Under the pieces are notes generated by a model that worked only from the letters and a program-made list of their open reading frames with translations, made no database searches and was not told the origin of the DNA. A stretch of DNA of 64,000 bases from a virus: IMG/VR virus record IMGVR_UViG_3300035698_014029, positions 9,517 to 73,516 of that record; one strand, 5' to 3'. The position numbers and the translations under genes are program-made. This document shows, piece after piece, positions 3,285 to 64,000 of this stretch (the stretch's first letter is position 1; each line of letters starts with the position of its first letter).

Positions 3285-4097
3285 ATGGAAGATAATACTA
3301 AGAAGCCAGAAGCAAATCAAGATGAAATAAGAAAAAACTTGGCTGCTCTTGATTTCTCAAAAGAAGAAATTGATGATCTTTTAGTAAAAGCTGAAGCATC
3401 AAAATCTGAAGAAGAAATCGAAAAGGGTTCTAAAAAAGATCTTGAAGATTTAGAAAAAGCTTACAAAGAAATAGAAACCAAAGAGGGAGAAGTTGAAAAA
3501 GCTTATAAAACAGATAAAGAAGGTATTTCTGGAGAAAAAGAAGCCATGATGGCTAAAATGAAGGAAAAAGGATATAAACCTGCTGTTGAAAAAGCTGAAA
3601 TTGATGAGCTGAATAAAACTAAGATTGAAAAGAAAGAAGAAATCGTTAAAAGTGAAGATCAGGAAAAGAAAGATGAATTAATAAAAGGTCTTTCTGAAAA
3701 AGTTGAAGAATTAGAAACTAAAGCTAATAATACTGAAGAAGTAGATGAACTTAAAAAGTCTATAGGAAGTGTTACAGAGTCTATTTCTGAAATTAAAAAA
3801 ATAGTAACTAGTATTGCTAATACTCCTAATGGGATGAAATCTCATCAATATAGTCAGTTTTTAGAAAAAGCTGAAGATAATGAACTTAATAACGATAATA
3901 AAAAAGTTATTTCTTTAAGAGATAAAGAAACACTTACTAAATCTTTAGAAAATTTAGCTGATGCTACTGATGATGTAGATAAAAAAGCTTTTTTAGAAAA
4001 AGCTATAATGGATTATAATTCTAATCCAGAATCTCAATTATCAGGTCAACTAGTTTCTGAAATCCAAAAGGCTGAGAATTGTACGTTTACAGCTTAA
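3285..4097 (+). CDS. Capsid scaffolding protein
   Basis: E/K-rich coiled coil between protease and capsid, with many [ILV]xK[ASG] motifs. Confidence 0.75.
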   Translation: MEDNTKKPEANQDEIRKNLAALDFSKEEIDDLLVKAEASKSEEEIEKGSKKDLEDLEKAYKEIETKEGEVEKAYKTDKEGISGEKEAMMAKMKEKGYKPAVEKAEIDELNKTKIEKKEEIVKSEDQEKKDELIKGLSEKVEELETKANNTEEVDELKKSIGSVTESISEIKKIVTSIANTPNGMKSHQYSQFLEKAEDNELNNDNKKVISLRDKETLTKSLENLADATDDVDKKAFLEKAIMDYNSNPESQLSGQLVSEIQKAENCTFTA

Positions 4098-9169: not shown

Positions 9170-9879
9170 TGGCTAACATACCTTTATTAACATTAAAAAA
9201 AGTATTAGATGGTTTGATTCAGTGGGTATCTGATAATCAAAATGATACTAATATACCAGAAGATGAGAAATGGCTATATAGAAATTTTAATGATGTTGAA
9301 TTAGGAACATATAAGTTTTTAGACCAATTACAAAATATGGTGTTAAGAACATCTAAAAATGCGAGGAAATTAGAGACAAGATTAATGTTCGATATGGATA
9401 GAGCTAATTTTCCTACAATTCATATACATTTACCACAAGAAAATGCTGGTGCTCAAAATGCTATAGGTACTAATATTTCAAGTGAAATGTATTTAAATAC
9501 AGATAATACTGCAAATTATATACATGGTAGATCTTTTGATTCTTCATATGATTTAATTATTACAAGTGATAATGATATGGAAGTGATAATGATTTATGAA
9601 TTTTTAAAATGTTTATTTGTAGCAGCAGCAGAAACATTGGCTGAAAATTTCACTGTTTTTGATTTCTCAGGAAAAGAATTGATACCAAATTTTGAAGTTG
9701 TTCCTAATGGTGTATATTTTAGAGCATTAACAGTTAAATTAGATCAATTAGTAGAAACACCTAGTATAGTTAAAATAAACACAATAACTAATTTTGACAG
9801 TATTGTAGGAACACCTGTTGAAGAACTTAATGTCGGTATTGGAGCAATGATAATTGAAAATACATTTATAATATCTTAA
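9169..9879 (+). CDS. Putative tail terminator / completion protein
   Basis: Position before sheath; FPTIHIHLP..E motif. Confidence 0.55.
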   Translation: MANIPLLTLKKVLDGLIQWVSDNQNDTNIPEDEKWLYRNFNDVELGTYKFLDQLQNMVLRTSKNARKLETRLMFDMDRANFPTIHIHLPQENAGAQNAIGTNISSEMYLNTDNTANYIHGRSFDSSYDLIITSDNDMEVIMIYEFLKCLFVAAAETLAENFTVFDFSGKELIPNFEVVPNGVYFRALTVKLDQLVETPSIVKINTITNFDSIVGTPVEELNVGIGAMIIENTFIIS

Positions 9880-33986: not shown

Positions 33987-35735
33987 ATGATAAAATTTAA
34001 AAATGTAGTAAGTTTATTTGATGGACATAGTGGAGGAAGGATTGCATTAGATATTCAAGGTATAAAATATGAGAATTATTATTCTAGTGAAATAGATAAA
34101 TATGCAATACAGGCTTCTGATGCTGTTTTCCCAGATAATATAAAACTTGGGAATGTTATTAAATTACGAAGATATTTAGAAAAGCCATATTTATTTGAAA
34201 GAATGTATAATTGTTCTTTTGTAAAAAAAGAGAATAAACAATTAATATTACATTGTACTGATTTATTATTAGACGGAGTAGATTTATTAATGGGAGGTTC
34301 TCCTTGTACTGGATTTTCATTTGCAGGTAAACAATTAAATTTTAATGATTCGCAAAGTAAATTGTTTTTTGAATTTATTAAAATAAAAAATATTTTAAAC
34401 CCTAGGCTTTTTCTTCTTGAAAATGTAAGGATGAAAAAGGAATATTATGAAGCTATTTCTAAATACGTAGGAGTTGAAGCAATAAAAGATGAAAAAGGTA
34501 AACCTTATATTAATTCTGCTTTAGTAAGTGCTCAAAACAGGATGAGATCGTATTGGACTAATATTGAGGGAGTTAAACAGCCAGAAGATAGAGGTATTTT
34601 ATTAAAAGATATTTTAGAAGATGAAAATTCTATAGATGAAAAATATTACATAAAAGGAGTTAAGTTTGATAAATTCTTAAGTGAATTAAAAGGGAGATAT
34701 CTTAAGTTAAATAAAAAAGGTAATTTAAAGCAGAATCAAGATAAGGCTTCTACTTTAACTGGGGGAGGTCATTCAGGGGGCAATCATTCAGATATGGATA
34801 TTCTTCTTGTTGATTACTCACATCAAAATGAAGGGTTGCGTTTTTATGAAGGGAAAGCCCCTACTTTAAATGCTAGAGACTATAAAGAGCCTAGATGTAT
34901 TTGTGTAGCACAAAGAGGTCGAAATATAGTTGATGGGAAAAGAAAGGATTATAATGGAGCCCCAACTGAACAACGATTAGAGCCAAATCTTGACGGCAAA
35001 ACAAACTGCTTAACTACCGTAGGTAAAGATAATTTAGTATTAATATCTAATTCTAAAAAAAATACAATTACAGATAAATCTATATATTATGAAAAGGATA
35101 CAAGAACCCTTACGATATTGCAAGAATTGCAAGAAATTATTAGAGAGGAAAAGAATGGGGAATGGGCGGTGGCAATCTATGCACGATTTTTTAAGGATGA
35201 CCTACTGTTCAAAAGAATGTATGAAAGTTTCATTTTCAAAGAACAAAAAGGATGTAGTTACAGAGAGGACGAGCAGAGAGAGGGCACAAAAAATGATAAA
35301 GCCGTCTCTATGTGTGAAATGCAAAGTGAAGAATGGACTGGACGTCCATCATATAGATATGAATCCTCTAAACAATTCATTAAACAACTTGCAGAGGTTA
35401 TGTCGGAGCTGTCACTTGAAGATTCACAGACCGAAAAAAATATGTACCGTTTGTGGAAAACCACAAAAAGGGTTAGGTTATTGCGAAAAGCATTATCAAC
35501 GATTCAAGAAATATGGAGACCCATTAAAATTGAAACAGAAGAAATCAACATAGATAAAAATAGTTATAAACTAAGAAGGTTAACAGTAAGAGAATGTGGT
35601 CGTTTACAGACCATTCCTGAACCTATTTTAGATAAAATTTTAGCAAGTGGAGTATCAAATAGTCAACTTTACAAAATATTTGGAAATGGTTGGAATGTAG
35701 AAACAATAGCTCATATATTTAGTTTTATAAAATAA
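33987..35735 (+). CDS. C5-cytosine DNA methyltransferase with long variable region
   Basis: SLFDG (I), GGSPC (IV), ENV (VI), QNR.R (VIII), RRLT..EC.RLQ (IX), GNGW (X). Confidence 0.9.
   Translation: MIKFKNVVSLFDGHSGGRIALDIQGIKYENYYSSEIDKYAIQASDAVFPDNIKLGNVIKLRRYLEKPYLFERMYNCSFVKKENKQLILHCTDLLLDGVDLLMGGSPCTGFSFAGKQLNFNDSQSKLFFEFIKIKNILNPRLFLLENVRMKKEYYEAISKYVGVEAIKDEKGKPYINSALVSAQNRMRSYWTNIEGVKQPEDRGILLKDILEDENSIDEKYYIKGVKFDKFLSELKGRYLKLNKKGNLKQNQDKASTLTGGGHSGGNHSDMDILLVDYSHQNEGLRFYEGKAPTLNARDYKEPRCICVAQRGRNIVDGKRKDYNGAPTEQRLEPNLDGKTNCLTTVGKDNLVLISNSKKNTITDKSIYYEKDTRTLTILQELQEIIREEKNGEWAVAIYARFFKDDLLFKRMYESFIFKEQKGCSYREDEQREGTKNDKAVSMCEMQSEEWTGRPSYRYESSKQFIKQLAEVMSELSLEDSQTEKNMYRLWKTTKRVRLLRKALSTIQEIWRPIKIETEEINIDKNSYKLRRLTVRECGRLQTIPEPILDKILASGVSNSQLYKIFGNGWNVETIAHIFSFIK
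35089..35553 (+). CDS. HNH endonuclease overprinted in the +1 frame inside the methyltransferase gene
   Basis: HHIDMNPLNNSLNNLQRLCRSCHLKIH plus CxxC fingers and C-terminal C..C...YC.KHY.R...YGDP. Confidence 0.8.
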   Translation: MKRIQEPLRYCKNCKKLLERKRMGNGRWQSMHDFLRMTYCSKECMKVSFSKNKKDVVTERTSRERAQKMIKPSLCVKCKVKNGLDVHHIDMNPLNNSLNNLQRLCRSCHLKIHRPKKICTVCGKPQKGLGYCEKHYQRFKKYGDPLKLKQKKST

Positions 35736-47327: not shown

Positions 47328-48368
47328 ATGAAAAAACCAATATTAATAATAAGTAGTGATTGGCATATTAAGCCATCTAATATAGACTCTATTATAGAAC
47401 TTATTAAGCAAAAAATAAAATTAGCTAAAAAATTAAATTGTACTAATTTAGCTTGTCTTGGGGATATATTTCAAAGTAGACAATCACAGCCGTTATCAGT
47501 TCTAAAATGTTTTGAAATTATATTGGATTTAATTAAAGAAGCAGAAATGGAATTAGTATGTATAAGTGGGAATCATGATAAAACTGATTATCAATCAACT
47601 AATTCATTTTTAGATCAATTTCAATGGCATCCTGCTTTAAAATTAATAAGAATATACGAAGGACTTCTAATAAAAGACGATATTAAATTATGGTTTTTAC
47701 CTTTTTTCGAAGAAAAATTATGGTTAGATGACTTTGATGAAAATATTATTAATAAGGTAAAAGAACAAGATAAATATAAACATATCTTAATGTCTCATCA
47801 ATCCTTTAATGGTTCAGTTAATAATGATGGAAGTAAACAAGAAAATTCATTAAAGGTAGGATTATTTAAAGATTTTTTTAAAGTATTTTTAGGACATTTC
47901 CATAATATGCATCAAATAGGGAAAAATATTTATCACCTTCCTTCTATTCAGGCTAATAACTTTGGAGAAAACAATGAGAAAGGATTTACAGTATTATATG
48001 ATGATGGAAGTCATGAATTAATACAAAGTACATTCTCTAAATATGAAACTATTAAAATTGATTTAGATAAAACTTCTAAAAAAGATTTAAACAAATTAAT
48101 CACAAGTCACGGTGGAAGTGATGATCATATAAGATTTAAATTAATTGGAGCTGAAGAAAAAATAAAAGCAATTAAGAAAGAAGAATTTTCAGTTGCAGGA
48201 ATAGAAGTAACATGTGATATTACAGATGCAGAATATGAAGCTTTAGAAATAGAACAAGTAGAACTTACTAAAGATACCATTAAAGATGAATTTAAAGTAT
48301 GGTGTGATAAAAATGAAAAAGATTATAATACTGGAATTGAATATATAAATAAAAAATTTGGAAAATAA
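47328..48368 (+). CDS. Mre11/SbcD-like nuclease
   Basis: SDWH, LGDIF, GNHD, SH, GHFH metallophosphoesterase motifs. Confidence 0.9.
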
Positions 48369-50389
48369 TGGCAAAAGGTAAATTAGACGATTTAATAGAA
48401 GATATAGAAAAGACTTTTGGTAAAGGAGCTGTTTCTGATATGGAACATAAAGTTGAAGGTATTGAATGGATTCCTTCCGGTTCATTAGGAGTAGATATTG
48501 CTACTGGAGGTGGATATCCAAAAGGTAGAATAATTGATATAACAGGATTAGAGAGTTCCGGGAAAACAACATTAGCTATTCATGCTATGGTAGAAGCTCA
48601 AAAGCAAGGTGGAATAGTTGGTTTTGTAGATGCTGAACATGCATTTGATGTTTATTATGCAAGAAATTTAGGATTAGATACAAATAAAGATAAATGGTTA
48701 ATTTCACAACCCTCGTCTGGAGAAGAAGGATTAGAAATAGTTGAAAAGTTTGTTAGGTCTGGATTATTTTCAGTTGTAGTAATAGATTCTGTTGCTGCAT
48801 TAACTCCTAAAGCTGAAATAGATGGGGCGTTTGGTGATGCGAAAATGGGACTTCAAGCAAGATTAATGTCTCAAGCAATGAGAAAATTAGTAGGAATAGT
48901 TCATAAAAGTAATACAGTTGTTATTTTTATTAATCAAATAAGAATGAAAATTGGAGTTATGTTTGGATGTTTTTCTTATAATTCTAGAATTATTTTAGAA
49001 GATGGATCTACTGAAAAAATAGGTAAAATAGTGAATCAAAAATTACCTATAAAAGTAATGTCATTTAACCAAAAAACAGGAAGATGTGAATCTAAAAAGA
49101 TATTAAATTATTATAAAAATGGTAAAGCTGATAAATTTTATAAATTTATCATAGAAAAACCTTATGGAAATGGCAGAAGTCAATTTAAATGTACTCCTAA
49201 TCATTTAATATTTACCCCATTTGGAGAAAGAATGGCTGAAGAGTTAGAGATAAATGATTTAATTTTAGCTAAAGATATTTATTTATTAAGTAAAATTCAA
49301 AAGGAAATTATTTATGGATCTTTACTTGGAGATGGTTCAATAAAAAAGAATGGTGTATTTAGAATAGGTCATGGTGGAAAACAAATAATATATTGTAAAT
49401 GGAAACAGTCTTTTTTTAGAAATATAGTAACAAGTAGTTATGAAAATTCTAAAAAAGGATGGAATTTTGAAATAAAAAGATGTGCTGAGAATAGTAAACT
49501 TAGAAGAGAATTATATTTAAAACAAGGAAGATTTTTATCATCTAATTTTTTAGATAAATTAACTCCATTAAGTATATCTATTTGGTATATGGATGACGCA
49601 TGTTTAAGTGGAAGTCATAAAAAATGGGGATATGGTAAAATTGAAATATCTGTAAAAAAATATGATACAGATCTTATTGAGTTATTAGCTTATCAATTAA
49701 ATAAAGAATTTTTAATATTTCCAACTATAACAAGTAGAAAAATTTTATTATTTTCAGGGGAAGAATCAAAAAAGATACAGGAATTAGTATGTAAATATAT
49801 TCATCCATCAATGCAATATAAATTGTCTCATCATTTTCAAAATAAATTTGAGACAATTTGGACAACATTTAAAAAACCTACATGGGAAATGACTAAAATG
49901 AGAATTTTAAGTAAAAAAGAAATAGTTATGCATTCTAAATATATGACTAAATTTGATTTAGAAATTGAAGATAATCATAATTATTTAGTAGATGGAGTTG
50001 GAGTTCATAATTCACCCGAAACTTCTCCTGGAGGATTTGCTCTTAAGTTTTATTCTTCTATTCGAATTGATATACGAAGAATTGGTCAAAATAAAGATGG
50101 TGAAGAAGTAGTATCTAATAGAACAAGAGTTAAGGTTATTAAAAATAAAGTAGCCCCACCTTATAAAAAAGCTGAGTTTGATATTGAATTTGGTACAGGA
50201 ATTTCAAAAATTGGAGAAATAATTGATTTTGGAGTTGCTGGAGAAATTATTAAAAAAAGCGGTTCTTGGTTTAGTTATGGCGAAACAAAACTAGGACAGG
50301 GAAGAGAAGCTGTTAAACAACTTTTAAAAGATAATCCTGAATTAACAGAAGAACTTGAAATAAAAATTAGAAAAAAATTAAAAATATAA
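48368..50389 (+). CDS. recA: RecA recombinase containing an intein
   Basis: [52 protein letters not shown]. Confidence 0.95.
48968..50011 (+). mobile_element. Intein (348 aa) with LAGLIDADG homing endonuclease
   Basis: GVMFG|CFSY...TPNH...GSLLGDG...WYMDD...GVHN|SPET. Confidence 0.95.
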
Positions 50390-55164: not shown

Positions 55165-55249
55165 TTATTTAGAACGATTATAAATAAAGGAGAAAATCAA
55201 AAGTTTTCTCTTTTTTATTTGTTTAAGAAGTATAACTTTTATACTTTTG
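55165..55249 (+). promoter_or_regulatory. Fur-box-like palindrome, terminator hairpin and Bacteroidota promoter
   Basis: ttatttagaa-cga-ttataaataa; ggagaaaa...ttttctc with T-run; TTTG(55218)-N20-TACTTTTG. Confidence 0.7.
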
Positions 55250-55292
55250 AATTGTAAAACGTAAACAATAAATTAAATAAACAGTAATTATC

Positions 55293-55806: not shown

Positions 55807-56829
55807 ATGAAAACCCTAAAATTACAATCATTAACAGCAAGCTTCTTTAGTATAGTATTTTCACTAAGTATTGCAAAACAATTAGTTGGAATAATATCAG
55901 GATGGATATTAATATTATTATTTGTATTTACTATACTATTTCTACTTTATAATGAAGATAGAAAAATTAAAGAATTACGGAGACAGGCACGAGGAAGAAA
56001 CTTTAACTGGACTGTTATCGTTTTAACCCTATTTATTTCAATCGGAATGTCTTCGATAGGTATTTACCTTTGGACTAACCAAACGTTCCAAAAAACTATC
56101 TTAAATGATGGGAAACAACAAGCTGAGATATCTCTTATTGAAAGTGATTATAACGATAGAATAAATAAGATTCGTTCATCTTCTATTAATACTGAAGAAT
56201 ATCTTCAGATCAAAGAAGATATAAACTGGTGGAAAAGAAGAAGTCCTGCTAATTTAGAAGAACGTGCTGATAGAAATAATCAAATAGTTATTCTCCAAGA
56301 AAGACTAAGTGATATTCTTCAGAAATATTCAGAACAGAAAGAGAATCAATTAAACCTATTAGATGATGAGAAAAATCAGAAATTATCTGAAGTTAAAATC
56401 ACACACAGTGGAGTTTCTAAAAGACTTTCTTTTGATAATTATATTAGTTTTATTTTTATATTTCTCGTTTTTATTACTGAATTTGTTATTATTAATCTTC
56501 AACGAGAAATTGGGAGATATTATAATGAAACTGATTCTACAGAGCTTAAAGTTATCAGGGATCTCTTAAATCAAGGAATGACTGAAATCACTATTGATGA
56601 TATTTCTTATAGTAAATTTGCAGATTTCGAAGGAGATAGTAATACTAAATACAAGCAGTCTAAGAAGCTTTTTAACCTATTATTAACTCTTGGAATATTA
56701 GTAGATAAAACATTTAAAGAAATAGGTGTTAATAAAGTAAATACCCTTTATGGTACTTTTATAAATCAAAATAAAGCCATTAAGGAATTACGAGATTATT
56801 ATTTTAAATTAAATAACTTAAATAAGTAA
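55807..56829 (+). CDS. Membrane protein with coiled-coil ectodomain
   Basis: Three N-terminal TM helices, coiled coil, fourth TM. Confidence 0.7.
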   Translation: MKTLKLQSLTASFFSIVFSLSIAKQLVGIISGWILILLFVFTILFLLYNEDRKIKELRRQARGRNFNWTVIVLTLFISIGMSSIGIYLWTNQTFQKTILNDGKQQAEISLIESDYNDRINKIRSSSINTEEYLQIKEDINWWKRRSPANLEERADRNNQIVILQERLSDILQKYSEQKENQLNLLDDEKNQKLSEVKITHSGVSKRLSFDNYISFIFIFLVFITEFVIINLQREIGRYYNETDSTELKVIRDLLNQGMTEITIDDISYSKFADFEGDSNTKYKQSKKLFNLLLTLGILVDKTFKEIGVNKVNTLYGTFINQNKAIKELRDYYFKLNNLNK

Positions 56830-56832
56830 ATT

Positions 56833-56906
56833 TTATTTAGAACCATTTTAAATAACGACTAAAATGGTTTTTTATTTGGATAAGAAGTATAACTTTTATA
56901 TTTTTA
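56833..56906 (+). promoter_or_regulatory. Fur-box-like palindrome and variant promoter
   Basis: ttatttagaa-cca-ttttaaataa; TTTG-N20-TATTTTTA; shares taagaagtataacttttata with the 55218 promoter. Confidence 0.6.
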
Positions 56907-57885: not shown

Positions 57886-58353
57886 ATGAATAATAAACTT
57901 TTAAAAATAAATGAACTTTTAAAATTAGAAGAACCTGTTTTATTAAATATAGATTCTGGTATTTATTTTTTATTTAATTCGAATGAATTGATTTATGTTG
58001 GAATAAGTACTAATATACAAAAAAGAATAATGACTCATAGATCAGATAAAGATTTTAATAAAGCTACATTTATAAGTGGAGATATTAAATCTTTTACTAA
58101 AAATGAATCTGATTATATTTATCATTTTTTACCAAAATATAATAAAATTATAAGTGATACTAGTGAATATATTAATATTAAACTTATAAAAAATTTAAAG
58201 ATATTAGGTAATGTTGAATTTAAATGTAAATTAATCAATGGGACTATGTATCTTGATAAATTTACAATATTAAAAGATTTCAATATAATATATGATGAGA
58301 AAAATAAAATTATTTTAAAAACAATAACAAATGGAAGAGAAAAAAATAAATAG
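57886..58353 (+). CDS. GIY-YIG nuclease domain protein
   Basis: GIYFL.....IYVGIS.N...R...H...E...I....PKYN. Confidence 0.8.
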   Translation: MNNKLLKINELLKLEEPVLLNIDSGIYFLFNSNELIYVGISTNIQKRIMTHRSDKDFNKATFISGDIKSFTKNESDYIYHFLPKYNKIISDTSEYINIKLIKNLKILGNVEFKCKLINGTMYLDKFTILKDFNIIYDEKNKIILKTITNGREKNK

Positions 58354-58651
58354 AGAATTTAAAGGGATTTGGATTTGTAAAGAAATATGGTTATCAAAAG
58401 ACTTAAATTCTGAAGAAAAAATATTTTTAGCTGAGATAGATTCACTTGAAAAGTTAAAAGGATGTTTTGCAAGTAATAGATATTTTGCTGATTTTTTTAA
58501 TAAATCAAGTAGAACAATTAGCTCTATAATTTCTAAATTAGAAATAAAAGGATATATTTCGACATCTTATATTTTTATTAATGAAACTAAAGGTATAAAA
58601 AATAGAGTAATTAAGATAAATTGGAAGAAAATACATGCTAAACAGGTATAG
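58331..58651 (+). CDS. HTH replication-initiator-like protein, N-terminal domain only
   Basis: FKGIWI...GCFASN.YFA.....S.RTIS.IISKL...GYI; ends at TAG before an iteron-like region. Confidence 0.7.
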   Translation: MEEKKINREFKGIWICKEIWLSKDLNSEEKIFLAEIDSLEKLKGCFASNRYFADFFNKSSRTISSIISKLEIKGYISTSYIFINETKGIKNRVIKINWKKIHAKQV

Positions 58652-58663
58652 AAGGTTTATGTT

Positions 58664-58817
58664 ATACCCCCTGAACTTGATAACAGGGGGTATAGACGAC
58701 TTCAACAGGGGGTATGGAAGAGTTACGTAACAACCAAAACTCTGGAACTCTTACTACTATTGAAATAGAGATACATTTTTTTAGCCTATAACATAATATA
58801 TAAACTAATATATAAAC
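58664..58817. repeat. Iteron-like repeats
   Basis: CAGGGGGTAT twice direct (within 58682-93 and 58704-15) and once inverted (58664-73); taatatataaac x2 (58794-58817). Confidence 0.6.
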
Positions 58818-59041
58818 TAAAAAATAAAGAGGACAAAATCAAAAGATTTTGCTTCCTATTTTAAAATAAATAATTATGAAAAGAATATTTATTATACTAA
58901 CATTAATATTGTTTCTAATAAGTTGTGAAGAAGATGAATTTACAATGAAATACTAACTTTAAATTATTAAACTTTATATTATGGAAAAGATACAAATACT
59001 TAAATGGTTAAATAAACAGAATTATCAAAAAGTACAAAGGG

Positions 59042-59161
59042 AACGGTTTGTATAAGGCAAGTTTGCCATAATTTAAAAACACAAAAGATGAAATACAAGA
59101 CAAGTTTTTATATAAAGTACTATGCTACAAGATTGAGAGCAAATTTGCTTTATACTTTGTT
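59042..59161. repeat. attC-like hairpin A
   Basis: AAC ggttt gtataaggcaagtttgc / gcaaatttgctttatac ttt GTT (15/17 Watson-Crick). Confidence 0.75.
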
Positions 59162-59303
59162 AGGGTTAGTTTACCCTGCAAAAATACAAAAAGGGGATAA
59201 AATTAGATGTTACGGCATAGGCTACCCCCATTGGAAAGGTAGTGAATTTGAATGCACCTTAGATTTTAAAGATGGCACAATCAAGAGATTGCAGTTGTGT
59301 TAA
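59088..59303 (+). CDS. Cassette ORF starting inside hairpin A
   Basis: ATG in loop, reads LLYTLL through the right arm. Confidence 0.5.
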   Translation: MKYKTSFYIKYYATRLRANLLYTLLGLVYPAKIQKGDKIRCYGIGYPHWKGSEFECTLDFKDGTIKRLQLC

Positions 59304-59505
59304 GGGTAGAGATAGAGATAATAACTATGCTGAATGTATTGATAATGTATTTGACTGGCACAAAAGAGTAGTTAAAAAATTGGATATACAAAATGTTAGG
59401 CTTTCGTTAATTGCCTTTGAGGAAAGTAAGCATAAGTTTTTAAGTAAAAAATACAGACACGAATACGCTGTAAAAGTTGTAGATGAATATTTAGGCAATT
59501 TATGA
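59272..59505 (+). CDS. Cassette ORF crossing a remnant site (LDIQNV|RLS)
   Basis: GTT at 59395 with IR 59395-59415 / 59494-59513. Confidence 0.5.
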   Translation: MAQSRDCSCVKGRDRDNNYAECIDNVFDWHKRVVKKLDIQNVRLSLIAFEESKHKFLSKKYRHEYAVKVVDEYLGNL

Positions 59506-59510
59506 AGCCT

Positions 59511-59595
59511 AACGGATGGGTATATATGAAGTACCCTAACCACGAACTTAAAAATTAGTACAAACCTTAATAGGGTATTTCATATATACCTTGTT
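59511..59595. repeat. attC-like hairpin B
   Basis: ggtatatatgaagtacccta / tagggtatttcatatatacc (19/20) between AAC and GTT. Confidence 0.8.
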
Positions 59596-59609
59596 ATAAA
59601 ACGTTAATT

Positions 59610-59786
59610 ATGAAAAAAATAAATAAGGTATTTCCTATCAATCATAAAGATGTATTATTAAGTGGAATTAACACACTTACAAATGAAAATGTTAAAGTAA
59701 TTGGTTATAGAATAAAACGTGAAGATAGATTTATTACACCACCTAAAGGATGGTATGTTAATTTCACACATTACGAAGAATATTAA
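59610..59786 (+). CDS. Cassette ORF (58 aa, not in ORF track)
   Basis: Flanked by gttataaaacgtt / aatgttttataac. Confidence 0.6.
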   Translation: MKKINKVFPINHKDVLLSGINTLTNENVKVIGYRIKREDRFITPPKGWYVNFTHYEEY

Positions 59787-59794
59787 TGTTTTAT

Positions 59795-59892
59795 AACGTT
59801 TGAGATAAACGACGTTGAACAAAATAGAAAGAACAAAAGTAATTATTAACCAACAATGTAATTAAGTAGCCAATGGCGTTTGATGCATTGTT
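59795..59892. repeat. attC-like hairpin C
   Basis: AAC gtttg agataaacgacgttg / caatggcgtttgatgc att GTT. Confidence 0.6.
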
Positions 59893-59910
59893 ATAAAACG
59901 TTTTTGAGCG

Positions 59911-60243
59911 ATGGGAATGCCAACATGTAATTTTAGTAGCAGTAGTTTTGCACAGCCTATAATTGAACAGGTAAATTTACCAAACCCTAAACCAGATAAT
60001 TATAACATTGTGCGTAGTTTGGTTGTAAACGAACGCTTAATTATAGAAATAAAGTACCATGATTGCACTAACTATGAAGGGTGTAAAATAATGGTTTATG
60101 AATGCACTTTAGACGATTTAAAAAAACAAAAGCTTATAGACCCACACTTTTGCAATAACAGAAATTATTTTTCACCCATTGCAAGATTTGAGCCAACCAA
60201 ACAGGGGTGGATTAATGCGTGTGCGTTGGCAAATGTTTTATAA
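59911..60243 (+). CDS. Cassette ORF, conserved hypothetical
   Basis: PNP.P...Y.DCTNYEG.KI...DPHF...SPIARFEPT..GW; flanked by gttataaaacgttt / aaatgttttataat. Confidence 0.7.
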   Translation: MGMPTCNFSSSSFAQPIIEQVNLPNPKPDNYNIVRSLVVNERLIIEIKYHDCTNYEGCKIMVYECTLDDLKKQKLIDPHFCNNRNYFSPIARFEPTKQGWINACALANVL

Positions 60244-60319
60244 TATCTCAAGAATAATAGAAGGTTTTAAGATACCTTCTGGAAATGAACTTAATTATTA
60301 ACTTAAAATAAATATTATT

Positions 60320-60577
60320 ATGGCAGAAACAAAAGAGATTACACGTTTATATGTTGTTACAGATAGCGAAACATCTTATGATAACATTGGAGATATTGAT
60401 GGTGGTATGTTTGATGAGAACTGGTTAAAACAACATATAATTTCTCACGGTACAGAGGGATTACTTGAACGATTAGGTAGTATGATTAGACAAGTGCTTA
60501 ACATAAAATACGATTATAATCGTGAGAAAAGTGAGCAAGATAATATTGCAATGTCTAAAAGTTGTGATGATAAATAA
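60320..60577 (+). CDS. Hypothetical protein in nested IR module
   Basis: Inside IRs 60262-76 / 60595-609 and 60239-56 / 60689-706. Confidence 0.6.
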   Translation: MAETKEITRLYVVTDSETSYDNIGDIDGGMFDENWLKQHIISHGTEGLLERLGSMIRQVLNIKYDYNREKSEQDNIAMSKSCDDK

Positions 60578-60943
60578 TATTTATCCTAACTATTGGTATC
60601 TTAAAACTTGCCTTTCATTCGTAGTTATAATTTGTCATATAGGAAGAAAAAGCTAACAGGTACGACAAGTTTTAAGGCGTGGAAGGACTATTCTTGAGAT
60701 ATTATAATTAATAATATTAGGTTTTGTGCGGTGGATGAGGAAGGGGGCGTAGCCCATATAGGGAGGTGGGTATTATTTAGTCTAATGTACATGAATAAGC
60801 GCCGTGCAGACTGAATTAAATTAAAGTGATGAACAATAGTTATTTTTTTAGGGTTTGGAAAGTTTTTTTAAAATAAATAGTAAAACGCTTGCATTTGTAA
60901 TACAAATGATATACATTTACAGAGAACTTAAAAATGTAAAACT

Positions 60944-61342
60944 ATGAGTAATATTAGATTTAAAGGCAAGAGCAAAAAGAGAATGGGTTTATACGCTCAG
61001 TATAGTAAAATTGATGGAGAACTTGTACAAACAAAAGAGATGAGTAATCATCAAGCCTATAATAGTAATAAAGATTGTCTGGATAAGTTTTGGGATTTAA
61101 TAACTGAAAAAGATAATTATCAAGATTATGATGTATCTTTAATTAGGTTAAAATCTACTAATTGGAGCAATGATGATATTATAGAATTTGCTAAGAAGTA
61201 CTATCCTGAAATGTATGAATGTGAAATTTGTGATGAGTATTTTAGTCGCGATGAAATGTATCAAATAGAAGATGAAGATGAAGGTGTTTTTATGTCTGTT
61301 TGTAAGAAATGTAATTCATGTAATGATTTTAATAAAGAATAG
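60944..61342 (+). CDS. Zinc-finger hypothetical protein in nested cassette
   Basis: CEIC...CKKC..C. Confidence 0.65.
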   Translation: MSNIRFKGKSKKRMGLYAQYSKIDGELVQTKEMSNHQAYNSNKDCLDKFWDLITEKDNYQDYDVSLIRLKSTNWSNDDIIEFAKKYYPEMYECEICDEYFSRDEMYQIEDEDEGVFMSVCKKCNSCNDFNKE

Positions 61343-61504
61343 ATGAGTAAAACAGCAATCTTAACCTTAAGGGTTAATCCAAAATTAAAAAAACAATTAG
61401 CAAATTTAGCGAGCGATGATAAACGTTCGCTAAATTCTTATGTAGAAATTGTTCTCGAAATCCATATTGCTTTGGAAAAGCAAAAGAGCGGTGGCAAAAA
61501 ATAA
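61343..61504 (+). CDS. Ribbon-helix-helix (Arc/HicB-like) DNA-binding protein (53 aa, not in ORF track)
   Basis: LTLRVNPKLKKQLANLASDDKRSLNSYVEIVL. Confidence 0.75.
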   Translation: MSKTAILTLRVNPKLKKQLANLASDDKRSLNSYVEIVLEIHIALEKQKSGGKK

Positions 61505-61682
61505 CTATTTAACTAACGTACAAATGCCTAATAAAAGTGATGAGGCATGGCGTTTATTTGTAGTTACTAACCGTTTTAGGAAAGGGCGGTATGGTATAAG
61601 AAACTTGTTTTTGTACCGTTGTAACCGCCCTTGTGTGATGAGGCGATTCTTTCTTGTGTGCAAAAATGGTTTGTAATGGCAA

Positions 61683-61985
61683 ATGAAATATGAGACGGAA
61701 AAATTAAAATATATTATTATGGAAAGAGATTATGATTTAACAGAAAAACAAATTATTGCTATTAAAAATGTAGAAAAAGCAATGAAAAAAGCTTTTAAGT
61801 GTGGTGTTGGATTTTGGGATAATTATTGTACTATGTCAGCTTACAATACAACCAAAATTTGTCAGCCTACCCCTGATAGTAGTTTTGAAGAAAAATTAGA
61901 CACATCAGCTATTTACAACCTTAAAGTTCCTAATTTTGGTGGAGGTAACGCAGATGATACACTCTATATTAATAGGTGCGAATAA
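61683..61985 (+). CDS. Hypothetical protein (array)
   Basis: ORF. Confidence 0.55.
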   Translation: MKYETEKLKYIIMERDYDLTEKQIIAIKNVEKAMKKAFKCGVGFWDNYCTMSAYNTTKICQPTPDSSFEEKLDTSAIYNLKVPNFGGGNADDTLYINRCE

Positions 61986-62172
61986 TATATCTTGATTTTT
62001 ATGGCTTATGATAACTAGTTAATGGTAGTTGTTAGTGGTTTGAAAAGAACTTTTCAGATACAGTCATAAGCCATGTGCGGAGGGCATATAACCTGCGATG
62101 TTAAAGGTAATTGTTGTTTTGCCTTTTCGTGGGTAGGCAAAAAGGAAGGTTTAAATTTTTAACTTAAATAAC

Positions 62173-62334
62173 ATGAGAAAATATTTAGAAAGTAAAATAG
62201 ATAATTTACAGATTAAACTAAGGCGAATAAATTCTGCAATAAAGTTTGATATAAGAACAGAATATAACAAAGGCAGAAAACATGAAATAGAGACTTATAT
62301 AAGCCTGTTACAAATAGAATTAAAAAATTTATAG
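62173..62334 (+). CDS. Cassette ORF (53 aa, not in ORF track)
   Basis: Inside perfect 16-bp IR 62100-62115 / 62355-62370. Confidence 0.55.
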   Translation: MRKYLESKIDNLQIKLRRINSAIKFDIRTEYNKGRKHEIETYISLLQIELKNL

Positions 62335-62459
62335 TGTTGAGGGTCTTTGCGTGAAACAATTACCTTTAACCCTTTTTGGCATATGGTAAGGATTTTTAAG
62401 GGATAGCAGCTGTAATTCGCTGTAACCGATCATAAATAATTTAGTTTAATATTCTTATA

Positions 62460-62687
62460 ATGAGCGACAAAAGAAAAGCAGATATGTCTATCTTGCTAAA
62501 GAAACAAGGCAAAACACAAAAAATAGAACTATTTTCGTGGCACAAATTTGGCGAATACGAATATAGACATACTGCGCCTAGGTACAGAATAAGAGTAAAT
62601 GGCAAATGGTTTCACGATGGAAAAATAAAATATTATACTAAATGGCAAGTAAGAGATTTAATATGGAGAAGCTACGAATTCCCTTAA
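62460..62687 (+). CDS. Hypothetical protein in nested IR module
   Basis: Inside IRs 62385-403 / 62680-97 and 62370-83 / 62767-80. Confidence 0.6.
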   Translation: MSDKRKADMSILLKKQGKTQKIELFSWHKFGEYEYRHTAPRYRIRVNGKWFHDGKIKYYTKWQVRDLIWRSYEFP

Positions 62688-62987
62688 AAATATTACCTAT
62701 GATGCATAGATATGATTAGCTATTTCTGGTAGTGATAACGCTAATTAGGATTACCGTGGAGGGTCTTATGCCAAAAAGGGATATGTTCAACGATTATAGC
62801 CTTTTTGCGGGTGGAAAGGAGGGGAGCGTAGCTCAATATAGGACGGTGTGCGAAATCGTTGAACATATTATTTGGGGAATATGGGACGGAATGAGAGGGT
62901 GTAAAATCATTCTGTACTATGAAATGAGTACTAATAATTTAATATTTTTTAGGGTTGGATTTTTTTTATTAATTTAAATTATATATT

Positions 62988-63377
62988 ATGAAACAAGAAT
63001 TTGAAATGTTACAAGAAGAAATGGACGAAATAATCCGTATTAATAAATCAACGTCTAATACTGTAATGATGGTTGGGGGTGTTGATTTTAGTAATAACTT
63101 AACGGAAGCGATTAATGCTTATTGGAAAATATTAGGAGATAAGTATGGATTTGAATGGAATACAGTTGAAGGTAGTAGTAAAGGAAAATTATTTTTCTTA
63201 GCAACGCAAAAACCTATTGTAATACCAAAAACCAAAGAAGAAATTGAAATTGGGAAATATGACACATTGCACAAAATAATTGTGCAATTAGAGTCATGCA
63301 ATTACGAATGTGAAGGAGGTTGTCTTAAAAATAATATTGCTTTTTTAGCATTAAAAGAAATGGATACATCTTTATAA
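62988..63377 (+). CDS. Hypothetical protein in nested IR module
   Basis: Inside IRs 62934-49 / 63405-20 and 62889-902 / 63450-63. Confidence 0.65.
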   Translation: MKQEFEMLQEEMDEIIRINKSTSNTVMMVGGVDFSNNLTEAINAYWKILGDKYGFEWNTVEGSSKGKLFFLATQKPIVIPKTKEEIEIGKYDTLHKIIVQLESCNYECEGGCLKNNIAFLALKEMDTSL

Positions 63378-63503
63378 TTTTGTAAAAATTAAGAAAGCGT
63401 AGGCAAAAATATTTAATTATACAAACTGATAAACAAATACTATGAAAAAACACCCTCGCATTCTTAGCGCTAGGATGGTTTTTAGCGTGAAACAATTACC
63501 TTT

Positions 63504-63626
63504 AACGTTGAGTATATGCGTTCGGGTGCGATTAGAAGCACGGACGATTGATTAACCAATAAAGATAAATAGAATGACAAAAGATAAAATTACCACCGAA
63601 ACCGCAACTGACGTATATACATTGTT
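63504..63626. repeat. attC-like hairpin G
   Basis: AAC gttga gtatatgcgttcgggtgcg / cgcaactgacgtatatac att GTT. Confidence 0.7.
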
Positions 63627-64000
63627 AGGTGCTGGGCGACCTAAACTACTGGATTTGTTTTGCTGTGCTGGCGGTGCAAGTATGGGTTTTAGTCTTGCTG
63701 GGTTTGATGTAGTTGGCGTGGACATAGAGCCACAACCAGAATACCCTTTTGAATTTGTACAGGCTGATGCTATACAATACTGTAAGGAGCACGGACACAA
63801 ATTTGATGTAATAGCTGCAAGCCCTCCTTGCCAACACTTTACAAAGTACAATAATTGCCGAAAGGACTTAAAGGAACGCTACGAAGATTTAATAGAACCA
63901 ACGAGGGCGGTGTTAATTGCAAGTGGAAAGCCTTATGTAATGGAGAATGTTGTTGGAGCTCCGCTTTTGAAACCGATAACTTTATGTGGCTCTATGTTTG
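63574..64000 (+). CDS. C5-cytosine DNA methyltransferase (runs off window end, not in ORF track)
   Basis: LLDLFCCAGGASMG, GVDI, ASPPCQ, MENVVGAP, LCGSMF; ATG inside hairpin G loop. Confidence 0.85.
   Translation, partial: MTKDKITTETATDVYTLLGAGRPKLLDLFCCAGGASMGFSLAGFDVVGVDIEPQPEYPFEFVQADAIQYCKEHGHKFDVIAASPPCQHFTKYNNCRKDLKERYEDLIEPTRAVLIASGKPYVMENVVGAPLLKPITLCGSMF

Follow-up and report, generated by a model that had tools for sequence, protein, structure and literature searches.

The array of small genes described here lies at the end of a window of 64,000 nucleotides (nt), which is the last 64 kb of the linear, 73,516-bp IMG/VR virus record IMGVR_UViG_3300035698_014029 (positions 9,517 to 73,516 of the record; all coordinates below are those of the window). 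From 59042 to 64000, the array can be read as two alternating kinds of module: cassettes, (T)GTTA-N5...N5'-TAAC(G), carrying short co-oriented open reading frames (ORFs), and junction hairpins, placed between the TAAC of one cassette and the GTTA of the next. Modules are exchanged between genomes, with boundaries at GTTA and TAAC, and the array is one instance of a family that is widespread among low-GC viral contigs. We regard it as an attC-like cassette system lacking an integrase, whose recombination mechanism is unproven; what is visible of it belongs to the accessory region of a myovirus of virulent type, and consists of small-gene modules that can be exchanged.

Cassettes follow a simple rule: they start with T-GTTA-N5-[A/C]GT and end with AT[T/G]-N5'-TAAC-G, N5 and N5' being complementary within each module and variable between modules. 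In order to evaluate this complementarity, motifs were defined without using N5, nearest motifs were paired, and permuted partners served as a control. N5 was fully complementary in 65 of 104 nearest motif pairs, with 32 distinct N5, compared with a permuted mean of 8.3 and maximum of 17; when the commonest N5 was left out, 45 of 79 pairs were complementary, as against a permuted mean of 2.7 and maximum of 8. The motif pairs are strand-specific, 104 being on the coding strand and 4 on the opposite one. Among the matches listed, the first ORF following a common 5' end closes with the complement in 13 of 15 loci; the complement is found at three positions relative to the stop codon, hence it is DNA or RNA, and not a peptide, that is conserved. 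In one locus (L074) the 5' end was predicted from the 3' end, and was then found at the expected place. Both the 65 complementary pairs and this partner, predicted before looking, support the proposal of an earlier note on this DNA, that each cassette start is complementary to its own end.

All four self-complementary ends quoted in that note were located in the window. The ends 59592-59608 and 59782-59798 delimit cassette B (59593-59797, + strand, as are all the features below), reading GTTA-TAAAA-CGT...ATG-TTTTA-TAAC around a 58-aa ORF (59610-59786), the only cassette of the contig to meet the strict consensus. A perfect 16-bp complementarity joins 62100-62115 to 62355-62370, the ends (GTTA-AAGGT.../...ACCTT-TAAC) of a cassette spanning 62100-62370 around a 53-aa ORF (62173-62334); a second copy of its 3' end, ...ACCTT-TAAC, lies at 63491-63506 and, together with 62355-62370, brackets 1136 nt carrying ORF 62988-63377. 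Complementary ends are also found at 62780-62795 and 62854-62869. For the fourth case, GTTA-GGCTT... / ...AAGCC-TAAC (59395-59513), which spans the 3' part of ORF 59272-59505, the pairing stood, as two helix blocks flanking a 5-nt mismatch (59395-59415 with 59494-59514), but the start had been placed one nucleotide off, GTTA being at 59395.

Inverted repeats of this kind are not matched by chance. Perfect inverted repeats of 12 bp or longer, within a span of 1600 nt, number 13 in region 58900-64000, about 9 times the number in shuffled sequence, since 100 dinucleotide shuffles of the same region produced 1.45 on average and 6 at most. The 73.5-kb contig has 51 such repeats, of which 14 start at or after 58899, and every one of at least 15 bp falls in the array region. 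Almost all the small ORFs lie within nested stems, one to three in number, most clearly ORF 60320-60577, whose stems measure 19, 15 and 12 bp. It forms unit D (60238-60707), with three nested perfect or near-perfect stems: 60238-60256 with 60689-60707, a perfect 19-bp stem absent from the earlier note, 60262-60276 with 60595-60609, and 60308-60319 with 60573-60584.

Three hairpins of the layout AAC..GTATA..TATAC..GTT had been described, and they exist: the + strand of the 64-kb window has three copies of TATAC-N3-GTT, all at the sites claimed, and the - strand has one, and all three + copies are matched upstream by AAC-N5/6-GTATA. The first, J1 (59042-59162), runs from AAC at 59042 to the TTGTTA ending at 59162, with arms (59050-59066 and 59139-59155) pairing over 17 bp, including 2 G.T; its loop contains the start codon, at 59088, of a 71-aa ORF (59088-59303), which runs through the 3' arm and the GTTA end. 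The second, J2 (59510-59596), assigned to type 1, has a TAACG/TGTTA closure, a 3-nt bulge on the 5' side and arms (59518-59538 and 59571-59591) pairing over 21 bp; six close relatives are found in IMG/VR contigs. The third (63503-63627) has TAAC at 63503-63506, GTTA at 63624-63627 and 11-bp arms (63512-63522 and 63610-63620), and its loop contains the ATG (63574) of a C5 DNA methyltransferase ORF (63574-64000, truncated by the contig end), whose family match starts at residue 21-24, just past the GTTA boundary. GTATA/TATAC is not shared by the whole family, in which other arm types begin GGCTATG, GCAAATATA or GTGTAAG. Of two stretches thought to be looser versions of the site, 59796-59892 proved to be a decayed junction (J3, 59794-59893, with decay of the 5' arm), of which another locus, L063, has a well-formed and well-paired homologue, while 60784-61565 shows long-range pairing around two ORFs and contains no local site.

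A larger set of junctions was obtained by scanning IMG/VR with the 15-nt leader of cassette B, which returned at least 116 stretches. The context filter accepted stretches with ATAC a few bases upstream of the 15-mer, or with the shared start-codon motif just downstream; 19 passed it among the matches listed and, together with the earlier loci, they make up 30 elements, 27 of which are unique. Their cores were fetched as AAC...TTGTTA elements, so that the AAC and GTT feet are present by selection. The shared layout is ...AT[T/G]-N5-TAAC-G, a spacer, a hairpin, and N-TT-GTTA-N5-[A/C]GT, usually followed by ATG within 4-10 nt. Folding by Vienna gives, for most of the 27 cores, a 5-bp TAACG/TGTTA closing helix, a 3-nt bulge in the 5' arm and a long stem. 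The mean z-score is -3.8 on the coding strand versus -2.8 on the other, 18 of the 27 being below -3, and the coding-strand fold is the more stable in 23 of 27 cores. AAC is followed by G in 25 of 27 cores, in a search which itself admitted only G or A at that place.

The hairpin arms belong to many unrelated sequence types, and pairing is kept in all. Within type 1 (J2 and the six related contigs), 179 of 179 cells pair, as compared with 32-60% in slid controls, and all 7 junctions of this type have an identical TAACG/TGTTA helix. Covariation of the arms, suggested as a check of the earlier proposal, was indeed found: arms that differ wholly between junction types nevertheless pair, and compensatory changes affect two pairs of type 1. 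The IMG/VR contigs L002, L004/L005 and L006 share short pieces with the window and have the same architecture; records G003 and G004 are identical over 15.4 kb, and no comparison was drawn from this pair. The type-1 junction had no blastn match among named phages. When whole genomes are considered, junction-like hairpins with stems of at least 10 bp are barely more frequent than in shuffles, and only those of at least 14 bp stand out.

Looser versions of the layout were found in two cultured phages. In Polaribacter phage P12002L, TAAC..hairpin..TTGTTA junctions occupy intergenic regions, between methylase genes, and ends of about 29 nt surround one methylase gene; Cellulophaga phage phi18:1 has a predicted ...AACCC-TAAC end, and a junction that follows gp30. 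A second kind of boundary sequence was observed in phi18:1, where a motif of about 60 nt recurs at three successive gene boundaries (2880-2960, 3330-3400 and 3545-3580 of locus L001), reaching from the last codons of an ORF into the leader of the following one.

Exchange of modules is seen when loci are compared. A junction with the same 22-aa leader, spanning the loop and 3' arm, is present in L047, L110 and L140, and continues, exactly from GTTA, into three unrelated proteins. Conversely, homologous ORFs in L047, L088 and L111, as well as in L110 and L146, are accompanied by different junctions upstream, downstream or both; for L110 and L146, it is the downstream junctions that differ. The end ...ACCTT-TAAC has three different continuations, two of them in the window and one in L005, where the ends of the 62100-62370 cassette enclose unrelated short content. 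L005 also contains a counterpart of unit D, in which the 5' and 3' frames are homologous and the enclosed ORF is different; about half of the positions of the outer stem differ, as judged by eye, and the stem is perfect in both genomes. Cassette C (59890-60244) has the 5' end of cassette B and a 3' end degenerated to TAAT, and encodes a 110-aa protein (ORF 59911-60243; phrog_13501) with homologues in L002 and L003; in L002, similar ends, again with TAAT on the 3' side, are preceded by a different hairpin.

Population data were taken from contigs of four runs labelled salt lake metagenome, which contain 36-88% of the words of the region; none of the sequencing runs is listed as RNA. These contigs replace 60319-60583, which is exactly ORF D, 59915-60222 (ORF C) and 61741-61980, and in all four runs there are contigs sharing only the 30 nt 59888-59917 with the window, among other flanks. 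One variant has the ribbon-helix-helix gene (61343-61504) followed by a regular ATT-N5-TAAC-G end. As to cassette order, the comparison of which the earlier note called for, modules do occur in differing surroundings and are delimited by GTTA and TAAC; the population variants replace ORFs at start and stop codons, and not at GTT/AAC.

We give an even chance to the modules being moved by a reaction that recognises a site or a structure and acts on a folded single strand. We infer that the exchange is site- or structure-specific and involves single-stranded DNA, and that the enzyme is not an integron integrase encoded by these phages. When a cassette is excised, or when neighbours share ends, the cassette ends and the junction would stack into one long attC-like hairpin; the folded single strand would be cut and rejoined at the feet of the helix, within TTGTTA and TAACG, and cassettes and junctions would thereby pass between co-infecting phages. 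Some junctions would also supply a start codon and a short leader, in frame with the following cassette. In a broader and clearly more tentative form, possible rather than probable, virulent phages of marine and saline Flavobacteriia would share an integrase-independent exchange, in which a new recombinase or a structure-specific nuclease cuts between T and GTTA and between TAAC and G, and start-codon leader hairpins are joined in frame to interchangeable ORF cassettes.

Several observations weigh against movement by such a reaction. Strict end motifs pair once on this contig and never in P12002L and phi18:1; being so rare here, the strict consensus describes a subfamily, fetched with one 15-mer. 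Anchoring at GTTA or TAAC is lacking in many stems of the window (unit D, 60835/61496, 62370/62767). At least 8 junctions have an ORF that starts in the loop and crosses GTTA and, since several hairpins include the beginning of the next gene, with its start codon, a crossover between G and TT would split an ORF; in phi18:1, the homologue of ORF 59088-59303 retains coding sequence resembling the 3' arm, without a 5' arm. A given cassette does occur with different junctions on both sides (L047 versus L088). Several breakpoints in the populations are at ORF starts and stops, and not at GTTA/TAAC, and no joint exactly at GTTA/TAAC was found in the metagenome contigs of the four runs, which cannot show rare circles. 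The pairs conserved as G.T on the coding strand fit an RNA fold equally well.

Candidate enzymes were also searched for, in 6 virus records, among which G000, the source of the window, is 70% complete, G003 is 91% complete, and G001 and G005 are 100% complete. Tyrosine recombinases (PF00589) were found in 0 of the 6 records and 0 of the 2 named phages, Y1 transposases (PF01797) in 0 of 6 records and serine recombinases/resolvases (PF00239) in 0 of 5. The tyrosine recombinase that the earlier note would look for in the rest of the contig was not found (PF00589; record 70% complete). A blastp comparison of 6 array-bearing phages, at 1e-4, identified one common family, present in 3 of 6 at most. 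No match over the cut-off of the integron integrase model TIGR02249 was obtained in 401 Flavobacteriales genomes, a search run with no positive control genome, and when bacterial and archaeal species genomes were scanned for the two common ends 65-95 nt apart, none of the 57 matches was a genuine junction.

In the strongest rival explanation, the folds act at the RNA level, as parts of a polycistronic early transcript involved in RNase III-type processing, stability or translation control, and shuffling is a by-product of general or microhomology recombination at conserved regulatory sequences of short length, as for the PeSL cassettes of T4-type phages; we consider it possible, if on the unlikely side. 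Helices would then close each ORF, and hairpins would surround start codons, in hosts without Shine-Dalgarno-led initiation. The strand data agree with it: all elements are on the coding strand, where 104 motif pairs are found versus 4, and 23 of 27 junction cores are more stable there. Two non-Watson-Crick pairs are conserved, the outermost T.G and a G.T at helix position 11, so that G.T occurs at fixed helix positions of the coding strand; helices of at least 14 bp anchored at GTTA/TAAC number 45 if G.T is admitted as a pair, as against 4 with A.C. Coding-strand wobbles would suit either an RNA fold or, the GC skew being positive, a top strand exposed as lagging-strand template; on the bottom strand they would be fixed A.C mismatches, so that either strand may be the functional one. 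Hairpins are located directly before or around start codons, 5' arms are adapted to coding 3' arms in three reading frames, and the innermost stems link the sequence preceding ATG to the stop-codon region (60308-60319 with 60573-60584). The exchange of ORFs at start and stop codons in the population variants also speaks for it, and the phage has UvsX-like, SbcCD-like and RuvC-like genes of its own.

On the other hand, the boundaries recur on the same 4-5 nt (GTTA, TAAC) between unrelated sequences, which is too short to guide homologous recombination, and ends that are unique to a cassette and yet perfect are more simply explained if both derive from a single hairpin. Most of the long-range stems are perfect, whereas selection on RNA would be expected to tolerate wobbles, and no Rfam family was matched: the window gave 0 matches at the gathering score and, at an E-value threshold of 5, only chance hairpin matches with E of at least 0.4. 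The RNase III stems of T7 early mRNAs and rRNA precursors are similar in being bulged intercistronic helices, or stems enclosing a gene, on the transcribed strand; they are not known to define units of DNA exchange or to have conserved GTTA/TAAC feet. PeSL cassettes are likewise short structured motifs between small non-essential genes of myoviruses, shuffled in a modular way in hyperplastic regions and exchanged between related phages. Conserved leaders and hairpin types do recur here, with arms varying between types; no promoter was established. PeSLs are conserved in sequence, recombination occurring by homology between copies, in contrast to the free arms, paired ends and 4-nt boundary observed here. 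The PeSL (promoter-stem-loop) cassettes of T4-type phages are the subject of PMC2839356 and PMC4122927.

Were the folds RNA signals, they would show how early transcripts are punctuated and translated in hosts without Shine-Dalgarno-led initiation. If, instead, a new enzyme or host factor moves the modules, this would explain the spread of small accessory genes, methyltransferases and further early genes among them, between unrelated phages, and would add a recombination system that reads structure with loose specificity. If the integrase-independent exchange is true, it would be a natural phage-borne analogue of the integron, possibly the birthplace of attC-type cassettes. The questions addressed are the origin of integron cassettes and attC sites and the role of attC clusters in virulent phages: a large and sharply delimited family of attC-like modules is present in phages, in an order of bacteria with no integron integrase match (0 of 401 genomes). 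As elements of this layout are found in two phages that are in culture with their hosts, phi18:1 of Cellulophaga and P12002L of Polaribacter, the question can be tested at the bench.

A third explanation, which we hold improbable, takes the array for a CALIN (a cluster of attC sites that lacks an integrase) made up of ordinary integron cassettes, derived from or exchanged with bacterial integrons through a host IntI acting on the bottom strand. The attC-like geometry, like the published phage precedent given below, counts for this reading and for the folded-strand reaction alike: according to PMC2727003, attC sites have unpaired bases on the R''-L'' arm only, a G after AAC and a variable top, and the junctions share with integron sites the AAC...GTT feet, the G after AAC, the extra bases of the 5' (R''-L'') arm, the variable top and a size of about 60-150 nt. 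As in integrons, the small ORFs are co-oriented and mostly promoter-less, with a methyltransferase among the cargo, cassette starts complement their own ends, and the stop codon is often inside ...TAAC. The ends GTTAGGC (59395) and GCCTAAC (59507-59513) are core-like. The layout is also that of P12002L, a phage with a published CALIN: PMC9892861 describes 17 phage attC clusters without integrase, the CALIN of the virulent P12002L carrying two methyltransferases, and one P12002L site recombined into attI1 by IntI1 in E. coli, on the bottom strand only. We do not equate that site with the P12002L junctions found here.

The likeness to integrons seen by the earlier note accordingly holds for the attC-like geometry, the self-complementary ends and the shuffling of modules; it fails for the integrase search and for the cassette-plus-downstream-attC unit, which is not compatible with the same cassette having different hairpins on both sides, the cassettes being reassorted from the junctions on either side. 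No integrase was found in the phages searched or in the sampled host order, where the integrase model matched 0 of 401 genomes, and the 57 matches in bacterial species genomes included no genuine junction. ORFs run across the supposed crossover point, the hairpin loops holding start codons and leaders that read across the boundary. The complementary ends extend for 13-25 bp, and not 7, and have a consensus of their own, in which a G.T of the top strand, or A.C of the bottom strand, is fixed at helix position 11. The ends often depart from the canonical RRRY/RYYY rule: GTTAGGC/GCCTAAC (59395, 59507) agrees with RYYYAAC/GTTRRRY, but the commonest end, GTTATAA, does not. An attI-like entry point at the first site, also proposed earlier, found no evidence in its favour; the junction at 59042 has GAAC in place of TAAC, and is preceded by a terminator-like hairpin. 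A full-text literature search returned no description of the junction and cassette family, the nearest being PMC9892861.

Miniature transposons of the MITE type, with terminal inverted repeats (as in the mycobacteriophage MPMEs) and mobilised in trans by a double-strand transposase, are a very improbable source of the array: the same 13-nt inverted ends do flank unrelated ORFs in many contigs, as discrete units of 150-600 nt, but with 32 N5 cores the transposase would have to disregard most of the repeat, target-site duplications were not observed, left and right cassette ends differ systematically in G/A and are strictly co-oriented with the genes, and Y1_Tnp and resolvase were looked for and not found, DDE families being outside the search. 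Elements of the IS200/IS605 type, transposed as single strands by 'peel and paste', resemble the array in being strand-specific, in recognising hairpins, in cutting at a tetranucleotide at the hairpin foot and in using the lagging-strand template; their end hairpins are, however, conserved in sequence, with two ends that are not known to pair with each other, and the Y1 transposase was found in 0 of the 6 records. Group I/II introns, retrons, N4-type hairpin promoters, dif/Xer mimicry and a cleavage preference of RuvC were considered and dropped, none of them being supported by a test.

The remaining features of the array lie downstream of unit D. A perfect 14-bp stem (60835-61509) surrounds ORFs 60944-61342 (132 aa) and 61343-61504; the latter encodes a 53-aa ribbon-helix-helix protein of the HicB/Arc-like kind (Pfam HicB, 25.3 bits). 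It is followed by a junction-like hairpin and a module (61510-61685), with TAAC-TAAC-G at 61510-61518, GTTA at 61563-61566 and then 118 nt without ORF, whose ends pair (61556-61577 with 61663-61685). In region 62368-62869, stems 62370-62383/62767-62780 and 62392-62403/62680-62691 are arranged around a 75-aa ORF (62460-62687).

Two conserved non-coding elements were observed among the modules. E1 (61998-62099) is the first part of a 161-nt stretch, 61998-62158, which corresponds to L005 2639-2800 and is 95% identical in L004/L005, between otherwise different phages. Its hairpin, 62000-62012 with 62063-62075, contains one compensatory pair, being G-C in the window and T-A in L005, with a G.A mismatch in the metagenome contigs; in the contigs of all four runs, 62071 is changed from C to A. 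E2 is about 200 nt long and present in three copies, 60590-60790 (E2a), 62690-62870 (E2b) and L005 2090-2300. Besides a first hairpin and a conserved GGCGTGGAAGGA-like stretch, it has another hairpin with a G-rich loop, which contains a small GNGC-(GTA/GAA)-GCNC hairpin with a compensatory change; in E2b, the G-rich element is enclosed by the hairpin 62780-62795 with 62854-62869. A degenerate E2 pattern was found in 23 IMG/VR stretches, of which those in L004/L005 are genuine and the rest are chance matches in high-GC contigs. Fold z-scores are -3.7 for E1 on the + strand versus -2.8 on the other, and about -0.7 for E2a on both, and do not decide the strand. A search for tRNA or tmRNA found none.

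The record as a whole has an estimated completeness of 70%, about 30% of the source phage being missing; it ends inside the C5 DNA methyltransferase gene, without terminal overlap. The GC content is about 27%, the large ORFs are on the + strand, and the GC skew is positive throughout. Matches to PHROG families (major head protein, tail sheath, large terminase, family-B DNA polymerase, DnaB-like helicase) identify a myovirus, with recombination genes for SbcCD-like nuclease subunits, a UvsX-like recombinase with a LAGLIDADG insert and a RuvC-like resolvase. Outside the methyltransferase gene, the sole DNA match to a named phage covers 156 nt (59126-59281), with 85% identity to gp30 of Cellulophaga phage phi18:1. 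This match indicates a flavobacterial host, and the host is probably a member of the Flavobacteriia; the assignment to a Bacteroidota phage, made earlier, is therefore plausible, on indirect grounds. A megablast comparison of 25 kb with named phages gave no match, and the 340-aa ORF 55807-56829 has no relative in IMG/VR.

Other observations concern single genes and their surroundings. The UvsX/RecA-like recombinase (48368-50389, 673 aa) has its family match split by a LAGLIDADG homing-endonuclease domain at residues 307-488, which is probably an intein. A second DNA methyltransferase (33987-35735, 582 aa) matches its family over residues 6-579, yet over about 280 profile positions, which suggests a large insertion. 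In the methyltransferase gene at the end of the array, 63722-63734 and 63985-63997 form a perfect 13-bp inverted repeat; the contig stops 3 nt beyond the second arm, and the assembly may have broken there. The stretch 58664-58724, which closely precedes the array, has a perfect hairpin (about 11 bp) directly after ORF 58331-58651, followed by two direct 21-nt repeats, 58682-58702 and 58704-58724, which are 86% identical. Finally, 55170-55250 and 56840-56905 are near-identical units, each consisting of a terminator hairpin and a promoter-like part, and are unlike the leaders used in the array; the promoter-like parts fit the TTTG / TAnnTTTG pattern of Bacteroidota promoters.

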